DNA of 64,000 nt from Shigella phage ChubbyThor: the sequence record OL615013, one strand, 5' to 3'. Numbering within the stretch: position 1 is the first letter of the stretch; each line of letters opens with the position of its first letter. This document shows, piece by piece, positions 9,915-13,694 of this stretch. The notes beneath the pieces were generated by a model, which saw only the letters and a program-made list of their open reading frames with translations, did no database searches and was not told where the DNA came from. The translations under genes were made by a program, and so were the position numbers.

Positions 9915-9971
9915 CGCTTTATTCAATAAAGAATTGCAGTAAAGTTAGTTGCATGGAAGGGAGGGAACACT

Positions 9972-10118
9972 ATGTTTTACATGATGTTACTCCTCATCCT
10001 CCTGATCGGGATTACCTTTACTCTCCTGGGTCTACCCGATCAGTCCGGTAAACAGTCGCCCACTTCGGCGCATCCGGTTTTGAGTGAAGGTTCGTCCGCA
10101 CTGCTGTGGGCAGTGTAG
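9972..10118 (+). CDS. small hydrophobic peptide (48 aa)
   Basis: ATG at 9972 preceded by GGAGGGAA SD at correct spacing; N-terminal hydrophobic helix MFYMMLLLILLIGITFTLLGL; below ORF-track length cut-off. Confidence 0.3.
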   Translation: MFYMMLLLILLIGITFTLLGLPDQSGKQSPTSAHPVLSEGSSALLWAV

Positions 10119-10119
10119 C

Positions 10120-12170
10120 TCAAAGAGGAGAGGACTTTTCAAATTAGCTGGTCTGCGGTAAAGTATTAAACACGAGGGAAACAGCGCATTGAGTTAGGCA
10201 TCTAAAGCCGACCTCACTAATCCCAGTCTCAGGGGCATGCGTGAATAGAGGCGTAATATCCACCTCGCTGGTGTCAGTGGACGCACTTGACCGTCGGAGA
10301 ACGAAACTCCCTGTTGTAGCGTGATTAGCTCAGAATCAGAGAGCACCCCGTTGGCAAGTCGACACCAACATATAAGGGGAGGTCGGGGGCGCTAATCTCC
10401 ATCACGCCGACAACATTATGAGTCTTCATAGAGGGTTCATAATGTTGCGTCAAAGGGCAACACAAAGGTTCCTGTTGGTTGAATTAACTTGATTCATAGT
10501 TCCTGCTGATCTTCCCGGATTCGAAGGAGCACCAACAGGCGAGGCCGGATGCGTAAGTTCCGGCAAATCGATGGCGAGGTGGTGCATTGGTGACACGGGG
10601 TAGCGCCCAGAAGTGTGGTTCGATTCCACACCCTCGCCAACAAATTAAAGGTTTTGTCAATAACGGGTTGCAGAGTATAGTTAACCCACTGAACGAAAAG
10701 CTGTTTGGGCACTAGACAAACACTTCGATGTGAACCCAGGACATGGCGTCTTGTGCTCAAACAGGTTTTCGTTCTCGTTGCTTGCGGCTTTGCGGGTTTT
10801 AAGAAACAGACCACAAAGATAAATGCAAATGATAACGCTTATCTGGCAGTAGCTTAACAGCTAAAACACCAGTGAGGTCTTCCGACTCCTCATAACAAAA
10901 TTCGGCGCACTAAAAATAGGCGGGAGGGTGTGATTAATAAGCTCCCGCCGACATCTGAGAGGGCACTTGATCGAGGTCGGTATCCGCTATACGGGATGCT
11001 GTAAAATGAATCCACGGAGTGTCCTCCCAGATGTGTCTCACAGCGCATCAGTTTGCAGTTATGCAAGCTTCAATAAGTTAAAACGCGCCTCAGGCGTTAT
11101 GGGATAAAGCCTTAAACAGTGGAATCCCCAGGGCTGGCAATCCCTGTTAAAGAAGTAGCCGTGTGGGGGTCAGCCCCCACAACGCAAAGTAGAGTCCTCT
11201 GGACGTTGAACTTTAACCCAAGGGTTGATTCACATGGTGAACGTTCCCGGCGGCGATAGTACAAGATGAGGGGTCATTGAAGTTCAGAGAACTCTACTTT
11301 GCGGCAGGTACTGCAAAACAGTGATCATCCTGACAAGCGTGATCACTCTTCGACAAAGCATCGCATCGTGGCTATCAACCACATCCTCGCTCTAGTGATG
11401 AGTGGTGTTATGTTCTGTCGGCCAGCCTCGTTTGGTCTGAACGTTAGAGGACAAGTGCTGAAGTGTGACGAAGACACTGAAGTGCGGGTTGTTTGGTGAA
11501 TCCTGCTAAGCGCAAGGGTTGAGTGGCAAAGAAACACCTGAGGGTAAGTCAACGCCATTATTCGCCATGATAATGGCATCGGGAGGCACCCGACGCTAAA
11601 CCGTTTGGCCTGGCGAAAGCAGGCAAGTATCTGGGGTCGATCACCTTGTCCTCTCCCAGGTGCGGGTTGTAGCATGGCTGCAACTCTGATGGCTCTGGGC
11701 ATCCGAATATCAGTTGTGGATGACTAGTGAAAAGAACGTTCAGAGCCATCAGAGTTGTGACCAACCCGATCTTGCAAGCCCGTATCCCGATCTGGTTAAG
11801 ACTTGCAAGTGGAAAGCCCTGGAAAAATAAACGCCTGTTGTGAGGCTACGGTGCAAGCCAATGACCAGCAGAAGCGCGTTGCCGTGAGGCGCACAAAGAG
11901 GCCTGCATGAACTGATCATGCACAAACGGGATAAAGGGTTGACAGTCCTTGGTTGGTTACACAACAGATTAAGGGGCGATAGTTTAAGGGATAGCTGTCC
12001 GGACAGCGAATCCTCATAGAGAACGGCTGGGAGGCCAAACCCAGCAGGTGAGGTGAAAATCCTCAAACCCCGCCAAACATTGTTGGACTGCCAGCAAGCT
12101 CCGGTCTACGGCAGGCGTGATGGGATCGCGGAATTCAAATACCGCCTTGGGAGCACCTAAATAAACCAGT
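10120..12170 (+). ncRNA. ORF-free, hairpin-dense region: candidate large structured non-coding RNA(s)
   Basis: No ORF with plausible composition or RBS on either strand over about 2 kb; many stable stems (e.g. GGCGGGAG/CTCCCGCC near 10920-10950, GTGGGGG/CCCCCAC near 11163-11183, 12-bp long-range pair GCAAAGTAGAGT/ACTCTACTTTGC); strand and boundaries undetermined. Confidence 0.3.
11680..11756. repeat. 17-bp perfect inverted repeat with 43-nt loop
   Basis: caactctgatggctctg (11680-11696) is the exact reverse complement of cagagccatcagagttg (11740-11756). Confidence 0.85.
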
Positions 12171-12193
12171 TGTTCAATAAACAATTGGTGAGT

Positions 12194-12394
12194 ATGATGA
12201 AAACGTTCGGTGATTTTATTGCTGAGTGGGATGGCCTCGCCACCGACAACAAAGAGATTGTCGAGTTTGTTGAAAAGCGAGGTGACAAGTGGGTTGTCCT
12301 TGACCACACCAAGACGAAGGTTCTTGGTACACATGACACCAAAGCTGACGCTGATGCCCAATTAAGGGCGATTGAAGCGAACAAGCACGGATAA
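12194..12394 (+). CDS. small hypothetical protein (66 aa)
   Basis: ORF track 12170..12394 begins at TTG; internal ATG at 12194 with GGTGAG SD is more plausible; stop lies 1-2 nt before tRNA-Asn. Confidence 0.35.
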   Translation: MMKTFGDFIAEWDGLATDNKEIVEFVEKRGDKWVVLDHTKTKVLGTHDTKADADAQLRAIEANKHG

Positions 12395-12395
12395 A

Positions 12396-12471
12396 GACGA
12401 TGTAGTTCAGTCGGTAGAACGGTGGACTGTTAATCCATATGTCACAGGTTCAAGTCCTGTCATCGTCGCCA
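12396..12471 (+). tRNA. tRNA-Asn (anticodon GTT)
   Basis: Hand-folded cloverleaf: acceptor GACGATG/CATCGTC, D-arm GTTC/GAAC, anticodon stem GTGGA/TCCAT with loop CTGTTAA, T-arm ACAGG-TTCAAGT-CCTGT, discriminator G, CCA encoded. Confidence 0.8.
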
Positions 12472-12727
12472 GACAATGGGTGTGAACGAAAGTGAATAGG
12501 CACGAAGTACGCGACCGACAAGCTCCAAGCCTCTGTCCAATAGCCGAACGGAATCTGAAGACGACGATAGTAACGCCCACCAAATTCAGAGTGTAGAGGC
12601 TACAGTAGTGCGCACCTCACGGGTTGCTACACCGGACACTCTGATACAAATCTGCCGCTGCGTGGATTAGCTGAGGAAGGATGGCCGATGTCCTCGAGTG
12701 TGGCCCAGCACGCAGCGGTAGACCAAA

Positions 12728-12811
12728 TGTGAGTGTGGCAGAGCGGTCGAATGCAGGAGACTGTAAATCTCCCCGTAACAGCGCGGTGGTTCGAATCCAT
12801 CCACTCACACC
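12728..12811 (+). tRNA. tRNA-Tyr (anticodon GTA), type II with long variable arm
   Basis: Acceptor GTGAGTG/CACTCAC, anticodon stem GGAGA/TCTCC loop CTGTAAA, T-arm GGTGG-TTCGAAT-CCATC, discriminator A, CCA encoded. Confidence 0.75.
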
Positions 12812-12952
12812 AAACACAGTAAGCGTTGCAGCCACGCTGTGTATCTGACCAGAAGGCACTGGTCGCCAGTTAACCAATCGGCGCTGAGAAGCGCGGGGAG
12901 TTGGGCTACGGCAGATCAAATGCTCAATCGGGTGTGAAGCCCGTTCAAATTT

Positions 12953-13036
12953 CGCGGGAGCCATAGGGGTTGGACAGTAGCCGACTGATCATCGGCGACG
13001 ATCACTGGACAGGTTCGAATCCTGATCTCCCGCTCC
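12953..13036 (+). tRNA. tRNA-like element, possibly tRNA-Ile (anticodon GAT) with irregular D/T arms
   Basis: Perfect 7-bp acceptor GCGGGAG/CTCCCGC + CCA; stem-loop GCCGA-CTGATCA-TCGGC fits an anticodon arm; TTCGAAT T-loop present but T-stem has a mismatch/extra nt; could not fold a canonical D-arm by hand. Confidence 0.4.
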
Positions 13037-13040
13037 AAAT

Positions 13041-13129
13041 TGGAAGGTTGCCCGAGAGGTTTAAGGGACTCGACTGCTAATCGAGTGGGGCTTTTAGCCC
13101 CCGAAGGTTCGAATCCTTCACCTTCCGCC
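13041..13129 (+). tRNA. tRNA-Ser (anticodon GCT), type II
   Basis: Acceptor GGAAGGT/ACCTTCC, 3-bp D-stem CCC/GGG, anticodon stem CTCGA/TCGAG loop CTGCTAA, variable-arm hairpin GGGGC/GCCCC, T-arm GAAGG-TTCGAAT-CCTTC, discriminator G, CCA encoded. Confidence 0.8.
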
Positions 13130-13540
13130 AAATTTGCGATCATCGCGGAAATCCCAGACGCGAGTGGAGGCCAGGGTGAAGACTGGCACATGGGCACTGA
13201 CGGCAAAGGTGTTCTACCTCCTGGAATTGGGTGGCCTGAATGGTAGGGAAAGCAGCCAAGCGTTGTGGGTTCAACTCCCACTCACCCAGCCCCAGATGGA
13301 ATGGGTCCATCATCGCAAATCATATTTTGGGCGTGACTTCCTGAAGAGTTAGAAGGTGTGCATGCCGACTCTCTCGTAATCGGGTGTTTAGGAAGTTAAG
13401 AAAATCGCGGCGAGGATAGTGAAATGCAAATAGCTTTCTCTACGCCGACGACTTCAGGTTCGATTCCTGACGCGCTCTCCCATAAGGCAGTACCAGTGCG
13501 AAGTGTGTAGTCTTTTCAACCCATCCCCATCGATGTGGTA

Positions 13541-13570
13541 TAGCCAGGTAAGGAAACCTGGCTTTCTTTT
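13541..13570 (+). terminator. intrinsic terminator closing the tRNA cluster
   Basis: Hairpin AGCCAGG-taaggaaa-CCTGGCT followed by TTTCTTTTG. Confidence 0.5.
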
Positions 13571-13694
13571 GCCCCCAGCTTAATGTCTTCTTATCACCCC
13601 AAATATGTAATCCTTCGTCGTAGTTTGTTCAATGATACAAAGGGGTTTAAAATTTAACCGTTAAAACCCCTATCATTGATTTGAGGATACACCA

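Follow-up and report, generated by a model that had tools for sequence, protein, structure and literature searches.

In a 64-kb stretch of the genome of Shigella phage ChubbyThor (hereafter the window, to whose positions all unattributed coordinates refer), a 67-base element on the + strand has the form of a tRNA with only a stub in place of the anticodon arm. With a probability of roughly 60%, we read this element, which we call cassette A, as a structurally constrained, dispensable, tRNA-derived RNA that would mimic tRNA without decoding. We favour a mimic over a decaying pseudogene because the irregular shape is common to three phage genera and its stems have changed in a compensatory manner, in combination with the distribution of an accessory gene.

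Anatomy of the tRNA-like element

The element sits in an ORF-poor stretch (ORF, open reading frame) of about 3.5 kb (roughly 10120-13650) that carries the phage tRNA genes, i.e., those for tRNA-Asn (12396), tRNA-Tyr (12729), and tRNA-Ser (13042), all on the + strand. It is composed of the following parts:

10573..10639, + strand: tRNA-like element (cassette A), 67 bases from G1 to the discriminator A, delimited by sequence, T-arm/acceptor scan, fold, covariance model R1, and orthologues
10573..10579, + strand: acceptor 5' strand GGCGAGG, the second copy of this motif and the true pairing partner, with 7/7 pairs in all undamaged orthologues
10580..10596, + strand: U8, G9, and the D-arm (GUG 10582-10584 with CAC 10594-10596), with A14 and GG (10589-10590) in the loop
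10597..10608, + strand: vestigial "anticodon" hairpin (GGG 10597-10599 with CCC 10606-10608) with the 6-nt loop GUAGCG, from alignment A1
10613..10631, + strand: T-arm with a 6-bp stem (G10613-C10631 plus UGUGG/CCACA) and the T-loop UUCGAUU, backed by compensatory changes
10632..10638, + strand: acceptor 3' strand CCUCGCC, from the T-arm/acceptor scan and the pair table, with the discriminator A10639 next to it

A first-pass annotation made from the sequence alone had described a tRNA-like element without an anticodon arm at this locus. The T-arm that it reported (TGTGG 10614-10618, TTCGATT 10619-10625, CCACA 10626-10630) and the acceptor strand CCTCGCC (10632-10638, followed by A10639) are indeed present. 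A full anticodon arm is missing as it had said, though a D-arm and a 3-bp stub hairpin exist. Its wording of a degenerate tRNA or tRNA-like RNA is right in form, with no call made by default ARAGORN or Rfam, and the label of a "minihelix" understates the element because of the D-arm and the elbow nucleotides.

Four unpaired bases separate the stub hairpin from the T-stem. C10631 is an extra nucleotide between T-stem and acceptor that pairs and co-varies with G10613 (G-C to A-U), which gives an acceptor/T stack of 7+6 = 13 bp versus the canonical 12 (7+5). RNAfold adds U10572:A10639 (U-1:A73) as a possible eighth acceptor pair. The element has the set of nucleotides that forms the tRNA elbow, i.e., U8, A14, G18 G19, a UUCRANY T-loop, and G53-C61. 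Its encoded 3' end lacks CCA, with ACA after A73 (A10639); every canonical tRNA of these clusters encodes CCA (30 Ackermannviridae loci compared). The 68-nt element sequence folds into a four-way junction at -29.4 kcal/mol (z = -2.56 versus shuffles). We searched the complete window, on either strand, for a T-loop-like heptamer closed by a 5-bp T-stem, provided that a strand able to pair 7/7 with an upstream segment began no more than one base beyond it; this gave six sites, all on the + strand between 10.5 and 13.5 kb, which are the three canonical tRNAs and three irregular elements (cassette A and two more). Since these sites fall only inside the tRNA cluster, the motif is not a chance occurrence.

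Conservation, compensation, and loss

Over the 601 bases around the element, identity is 99% to Salmonella phage SKML-39 and 94-98% to the Shigella phages Gloob and Ag3, which are all Agtrevirus members within the Ackermannviridae; the phage of the window is an Agtrevirus-like member of that family. In all, 691 phage records match these 601 bases at least in part, and the element with its immediate flanks is found at a coverage of at least 80% in 162 records from Kuttervirus, Agtrevirus, and Taipeivirus, whose hosts are Salmonella, E. coli, Shigella, and Klebsiella. Covariance model R1 scores the window element at 103.5 bits as a single copy, and there is one copy per genome. Kuttervirus sequence including the element (94% identity) is also part of GenBank record OR844942.1 ("Enterococcus phage Efm 3-10", 111 kb), which is probably mislabelled or contaminated.

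We aligned 11 distinct orthologue versions from the three genera (alignment A1), and on the proposed structure 96.2% of the cells are standard pairs. None of 500 column shuffles reached the observed values, and pairing fell to 38-61% when the 3' partners were slid by 1-3 columns. Four pairs have changed on both sides: acceptor pair 6:67 (G-C to A-U in K751, involving the second GGCGAGG copy), D-stem pair 11:25 (U-A to C-G in K751), the sixth T-stem pair 43:61 (G-C to A-U in RCIP0012 and Bullseye), and T-stem pair 50:64, listed also as 45:59 (G-C to A-U in K751). Outside one subclade, each of about seven single-sided stem changes gives a G.U pair or restores a pair, with a neutral chance of at most 0.5 per change of preserving the pair by transitions alone. 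The G.U transitions are located at 2:71, at 3:70, in the stub stem, and at two T-stem pairs; because they would be A.C mismatches on the opposite strand, the constrained molecule should be + strand RNA. The stub stem is retained as G-C or G.U in 11/11 sequences. No variation is seen at U8, A14, the D-loop GG, or G53-C61, nor in the T-loop except for one of its seven bases, which only S115 lacks (a one-base T-arm deletion). K751 has a clean 4-bp D-stem (GCGC/GCGC), and for K751 as for RCIP0012 the predicted fold is a clean four-way junction like that of a tRNA. The irregular shape, i.e., the stub arm, the 6-bp T-stem, and the short variable region, is common to the three genera and thus predates their split. 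From this common shape and the compensatory evolution that followed we infer that their ancestor had a non-decoding mimic selected for its L-shape.

Cassette A is one of several occupants of a polymorphic slot between a conserved left hairpin (GAGGCCGGAUGCGUAAGUUCCGG) and, on the right, an A/U-rich stretch with a promoter. These borders, kept across genera, are represented in the window by the first two lines below, and the remaining lines list the states of the slot:

10538..10564, + strand: first GGCGAGG copy and conserved hairpin GCCGGA-UGCGUAAGU-UCCGGC, the left slot border, outside the cassette
10654..10681, + strand: sigma-70-like promoter (TTGTCA, 16 nt, TATAGT), the right slot border, from scans of the window, MK-13, and LIMEstone1
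Slot empty: MK-13, GEC_vB_N6, bering, and Magnus, as well as LIMEstone1 with a stronger hairpin
Slot with cassette A: the window and its orthologues
Slot with a tRNA-like RNA of about 150 nt ("B"): PS5, Vi01, Marshall, and KpS110, 39 records in total
Slot with B followed by A: IMG/VR contig L022
Slot with a fusion of A (5' part) and B (3' part): Phi_10 group
Slot with a deletion remnant of which only the 3' acceptor strand is left: ZQ1
Slot with an 84-codon ORF: IME250
Slot with a 92-nt irregular "tRNA-Cys(aca)" with an 8-bp acceptor: Serratia phage phiMAM1 (L201 808-899)

The phiMAM1 element has a long variable arm and a C.A mismatch replacing G53-C61. As far as these genome comparisons tell, the element is an accessory, optional cassette, and its site is a hot spot for tRNA-like genes of irregular form. 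Its accessory status follows from frequent loss and from one decaying clade, and it would be dispensable because the subclade of S115, SPTD1, and FEC14 carries disruptive mutations.

Several observations weigh against a selected mimic. Many close relatives lack the element or have it replaced, fused, or deleted. Changes that break pairs do occur, all of them in a single Kuttervirus subclade that shares G70 to U and in which a U.U mismatch is seen. To this, S115-type phages add a 1-nt deletion in the T-arm, SPTD1 an A7.C66 together with a T-stem mismatch, and FEC14 a 7-nt duplication in the element; this damaged subclade comprises at most about 20 of the 162 records, judged by BLAST identity class. 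Between genera the element is 82-87% identical, no higher than the flanking non-coding DNA (83-90%), and no more than two or three divergent lineages carry the covariation. In the window, as in Mutine, it is the first GGCGAGG copy that pairs in the minimum-energy fold of the 103-nt precursor. Finally, the promoter scan of the window found no promoter directly upstream of the element, and from its sequence the upstream hairpin could be a terminator.

Much of this would be expected of a decaying pseudogene, i.e., a tRNA that has lost its anticodon arm, is functionless, and awaits deletion. We consider this account unlikely, even though it survives better than any other alternative. It would explain why tRNA finders fail and no CCA is encoded, why conservation is no better than that of the flanks, why presence among relatives is patchy (including the ZQ1 remnant and the Phi_10 hybrid), and why the S115, SPTD1, and FEC14 lineages carry disruptive mutations; other irregular tRNA-like sequences in the same cluster also fit it. 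A pseudogene accounts poorly for an irregular shape that is older than the split of three genera, for four both-sided pair changes since then, and for the preserved pairing at all other changes outside one subclade. The disruptive changes are concentrated in that single subclade and not scattered, and stem substitutions that ignore pairing, as expected of a neutral pseudogene, are seen only there.

The first GGCGAGG copy calls for separate treatment. As the first-pass annotation had noted, the motif is found twice (10538-10544 and 10573-10579), with a CCGGA...TCCGG hairpin (10545-10563) between the copies. The "duplicated acceptor half" that it saw therein is real for the window, but it is not conserved, and the first copy belongs to the hairpin module: it is retained in empty-slot phages (MK-13, GEC_vB_N6, Magnus, and bering) and in PS5, which has only B. 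In Kuttervirus and Taipeivirus the first copy reads GACGAGG and the true 5' strand GGUGAGG, so that the GGCGAGG duplication is Agtrevirus-specific. The related proposal of a tRNA interrupted by an insertion, with the first copy as true 5' strand, is not supported, on three counts: the first copy lies outside the cassette and is kept when the slot is empty, the compensatory 6:67 change of K751 uses the second copy, and the K751, RCIP0012, and EP75 precursors fold via the second copy. All the same, the first copy keeps 6-7/7 complementarity to the 3' acceptor strand in all lineages and is a perfect Watson-Crick match to it in the group of Mutine, maane, and STML-13-1. By these fold predictions, pairing between the leader copy and the acceptor strand may form an alternative structure.

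This complementarity and the lowest-energy folds via the first copy in the window and Mutine would suit an element that acts at the level of DNA or transcript, be it as a terminator or insulator, as a target of homing or recombination, or as a regulatory structure between the leader GGCGAGG and the 3' strand. So would its insertion exactly between the hairpin and the A/U-rich tract with promoter of empty-slot phages, and the homing endonuclease genes near the slot in some relatives (they lie in the tRNA-cluster region of Phi_10 and pSal-SNUABM-02). We nevertheless find such an explanation quite improbable: a terminator or DNA site has no need of invariant elbow nucleotides and cloverleaf covariation, the strand-specific, G.U-only variation indicates RNA, the first copy exists without the cassette, and a scan for the terminator consensus did not call the upstream hairpin in the window, MK-13, or LIMEstone1.

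A genuine decoding tRNA of unusual structure is less probable still. The first-pass annotation had pointed to tRNA finders as the check on its hand fold; default ARAGORN makes no call on the element, and Rfam calls no family at the gathering threshold. With permissive settings, the best Rfam family is tRNA-Sec (RF01852) at 19.4 bits (E = 0.25, threshold 47), and because this is the best match of its clan, the tRNA model (RF00005) reaches at most 19.4 bits versus a threshold of 29. A tRNA-Sec proper can be rejected, as its 19.4 bits stay below the threshold and the element has neither a UCA anticodon nor a long variable arm and has only the 13-bp stack in common with it. In relaxed mode, another check that had been suggested, ARAGORN does call the element at 80% thresholds and draws cloverleafs, but the "anticodon" differs in each orthologue: "(ag)" in the window, Ala-AGC in EP75, Leu-CAA in K751, and Leu-UAG in RCIP0012, the last with a 7-nt loop and a call at the 95% threshold. 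In most orthologues the stub has a 3-bp stem with a 5-6-nt loop (mostly 6 nt), short of the 5-bp stem and 7-nt loop of an anticodon arm, and the loop varies between UAGCG, UGGCG, CAGCG, UAGAU, UAGCU, and CAACG in the 11-sequence alignment. Some orthologues have the loop G-U-AGC-G with properly placed U33 and R37, and GenBank records EP75 and SeKF_19 annotate the orthologue as "putative tRNA-Ala". The alanine identity determinant is G3.U70; position 3:70 is C-G or U.G in all orthologues and never G3.U70. The alanine annotation is therefore unlikely to be right, since in addition the identities assigned by ARAGORN differ by orthologue. The extra nucleotide between T-stem and acceptor also speaks against an ordinary tRNA. 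Judging from these features, decoding is almost certainly impossible, and where GenBank records place a "tRNA-Ala" or a "hypothetical protein" here, the annotation is probably wrong.

Other RNA classes and a coding function were considered as well. A tmRNA search with ARAGORN was negative, and the acceptor strands are 52 nt apart with no ORF between them. The ORFs over the element on both strands have no Pfam or PHROG match, and a coding reading is ruled out because indels of 77 nt, 1 nt, and 7 nt among relatives break any frame. No Y RNA, riboswitch, or other Rfam family matches the element, and Rfam 15 has no family for cassette A or element B. A chance resemblance to T-arm and acceptor in non-coding DNA, for which only the failure of default tRNA finders could be cited, is practically dismissed by the confinement of T-arm plus 7/7 acceptor sites to the tRNA cluster of the 64-kb window and by conservation with covariation in about 160 genomes.

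Searches beyond these phages yielded no relatives of the element. As to a possible cellular ancestor, none of 5,426 E. coli genomes matched the element by BLAST, and the pattern of T-arm, extra nucleotide, and acceptor had 0 matches in GTDB species genomes; without the extra nucleotide, the pattern hit 41 GTDB loci, mostly tRNA-Tyr of Fermentibacteria, which we discarded as a coincidence of acceptor sequence. No canonical tRNA resembles the element as a paralogue in 30 Ackermannviridae loci. The metagenome pattern GTGGYGCATWGGT(N15-40)GGTTCGAWTCC matched at least 120 loci, none in an Ackermannviridae context and nearly all from an unrelated tRNA-derived repeat/tRNA family of Ga0081606, and was likewise set aside. 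In that family (L031-L150), a single tRNA-derived sequence (GTGGCGCATTGGTAGAG...GGTTCGAATCCCGCTCTAGCCGCCACGTAGG) recurs in diverged form more than 100 times, on separate contigs; by sequence it looks like a tRNA-derived, SINE-like repeat of a eukaryote in the sample. In the literature we found no paper tying Ackermannviridae or Kuttervirus to a tRNA-like RNA.

Transcription context and other irregular elements

Upstream of the element lies a candidate transcription unit:

9919..10118, + strand: candidate promoter module (9919-9936) and a 48-amino-acid (aa) ORF (9972-10118)

The ORF matches phrog_8415 (E = 2.7e-33) and is followed by about 450 nt of non-coding sequence, the hairpin, and the element. 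The promoter-like module, TTNTYCAATAANNNNTTG followed by a -10-like hexamer, occurs on the + strand at 9919, 10653, 12170, and 17504; 0/100 shuffles reached a count of four in the window, and the module is probably the early-promoter consensus of this phage group. The right-border promoter (10654-10681) belongs to the copy at 10653. Downstream of the copy at 12170, a small ORF (12194-12394) directly adjoins tRNA-Asn (12396), which sets a precedent for a transcription unit of ORF plus tRNA. Because that unit has the same layout, the element takes the place of the tRNA in a promoter-ORF-tRNA unit.

Further structured sequences surround the slot. Directly 3' of the 10654-10681 promoter, 10691-10774 (+ strand) is a hairpin with 27-nt arms of 89% complementarity followed by UUUUCGUU; it is conserved from Agtrevirus to Limestonevirus and might represent a small RNA of the phage or else a terminator. 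Upstream of the element, a perfect 11-bp inverted repeat (10411-10421 / 10437-10447; CAACATTATGA / TCATAATGTTG, 15-nt spacer) and an 8-bp stem (10470-10477 / 10532-10539; CCTGTTGG / CCAACAGG) that encloses about 54 nt of conserved non-coding sequence may constitute an operator or structured leader.

In element B, acceptor, D-arm, and T-arm are present, the anticodon arm has given way to a conserved three-way-junction core (GACGAGGAAAGGCGUCCCGUGCGACGC...GAUGGU...ACCUUCUCCUAAGAC), and double changes are seen at 12 pairs. We located it in PS5 (L007 3048-3196), the IMG/VR contig (L022 306-454), Pectobacterium phage Amona (L029 2471-2616), and Enterobacter phage phiT5282EW (L030 2484-2623), and it also adjoins tRNA genes in unrelated 42-kb and 95-kb phages. 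In phiT5282EW it forms an array with tRNA-Asn and a further type of element (L030 2627-2748; also L197 673-794) whose acceptor, D-arm, and T-arm are normal but whose anticodon region contains about 50 inserted nt, and which goes uncalled by ARAGORN.

The window itself contains three more irregular sequences, all on the + strand. The 149 nt at 13329-13477 combine a 7-bp acceptor (GGGCGUG/CGCGCUC) with a T-arm (UCAGG-UUCGAUU-CCUGA) at a fold z of -2.4; this sequence is missed by every tRNA finder and has an inner hairpin motif, CGAGGAUAG...UUCUCUA, in common with element B. At 13228-13290, 61-63 nt without an anticodon arm carry the T-arm GUGGG-UUCAACU-CCCAC, and the 80 nt at 12954-13033 have an anticodon-like loop, CUGAUCA, and score 21 bits with the tRNA-Sec model; default ARAGORN calls neither. 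The tRNA cluster is also mosaic between close relatives: comparison of SKML-39 (L001 5582-6994) with window positions 11000-13200 shows flanks of 99% identity around a cluster of Met, Arg, a 470-aa coding sequence, Asn, and Ser in SKML-39 and of Asn, Tyr, and Ser in the window.

Possible roles and significance

If the element is a non-decoding mimic, a reading to which the other irregular cassettes in the same slot (the 150-nt B and the 92-nt element of phiMAM1) lend support by context, it could be expressed by read-through from the early transcription unit that would start near 9919 with promoter and 48-aa ORF and end at the element. RNase P prefers U at -1 and G at +1; the host enzyme would cut at G10573, which has the favoured U at -1. 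Trimming of the 3' end at A10639 could then be followed by addition of CCA by the host CCA-adding enzyme, resulting in a stable RNA of about 67 nt that would act by tRNA mimicry. The parts that have been kept, i.e., the acceptor helix, U8, A14, the D-loop GG, and the T-loop, are those seen by tRNA processing and modification enzymes. Such an RNA might occupy or titrate a host factor with affinity for the tRNA elbow or acceptor end, or it might provide the upstream mRNA with a module for processing and for its 3' end. A 13-bp acceptor/T stack keeps tRNA-Sec away from EF-Tu, and by analogy the 13-bp stack of the element fits a role outside ordinary decoding.

The second of these roles has eukaryotic and organellar parallels. 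The mascRNA of MALAT1, described by Wilusz et al. in 2008, is reportedly a tRNA-shaped module of about 61 nt at a transcript end without a functional anticodon. Plant mitochondrial t-elements are tRNA-shaped sequences recognised by RNase P or RNase Z that define transcript ends (PMC1920247). The position of the element after a promoter and ORF and the U at -1 would be compatible with processing of this type; the likeness is one of mechanism and not of ancestry.

Among phages, the closest likeness is to the stable RNAs C and D of T4 (species 1 and 2 RNA; rnaC and rnaD), whose biological role is still unknown (PMC3014915). These are likewise small non-tRNA RNAs inside the tRNA gene cluster of a virulent phage, and rnaC has at its end a canonical T-arm (CCGGG-UUCGAAU-CCCGG) followed by an acceptor-like strand. 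They belong to another phage family and are not homologous to the element, as R1 has no match in the T4 tRNA locus, and with 119-139 nt and large extra domains they are nearer in style to cassette B than to the 67-nt element. Allo-tRNAs (8/4 and 9/3) have a non-canonical acceptor/T geometry and occur in phage tRNA clusters (PMC5389517). Both allo-tRNAs and tRNA-Sec, which resembles the element in its 13-bp acceptor/T stack and provides its best Rfam model, keep full anticodon arms and decode, in contrast to the 7/6 split of the element without a long variable arm. Non-decoding tRNA mimics are known from bacteria as well: the tRNA-like domain of the Y RNA YrlA is processed or modified by tRNA enzymes (PMC4201824), and the pseudo-tRNA tRNA-Other of Bacillus cereus is described as non-decoding where it is cited in PMC5389517. 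YrlA differs by its opposite topology, in which the ends lie at the anticodon side, and by a stem that binds Ro60, and the element has no Rfam match to such families.

A broader and speculative idea, to which we give little credence at present, is that Ackermannviridae and some unrelated phages keep a slot for interchangeable anticodon-less mimics that act on host tRNA biology. If so, cassette A, the 150-nt B, and the 92-nt element of phiMAM1 would be made as stable RNAs and would inhibit, or act as decoys for, tRNA-targeting defence nucleases or enzymes binding the elbow or acceptor end; alternatively, they would be charged by synthetases that ignore the anticodon (of Leu, Ala, or Ser type). 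The variable stub loop would then reflect an arms race and not neutrality.

Phage tRNA clusters are now seen as tools against host immunity that cleaves tRNAs. To our knowledge, the non-tRNA RNAs in such clusters, such as RNAs C and D of T4, have had no known function for 50 years. The comparisons made here indicate that the ChubbyThor element is a real, conserved, irregular tRNA-like gene and part of a hot spot for anticodon-defective tRNA mimics. It offers a compact and alignable example of an anticodon-less mimic with covariation, and since present, absent, and damaged alleles occur naturally in easily grown phages of Salmonella, E. coli, and Klebsiella, the role of such mimics is directly testable.

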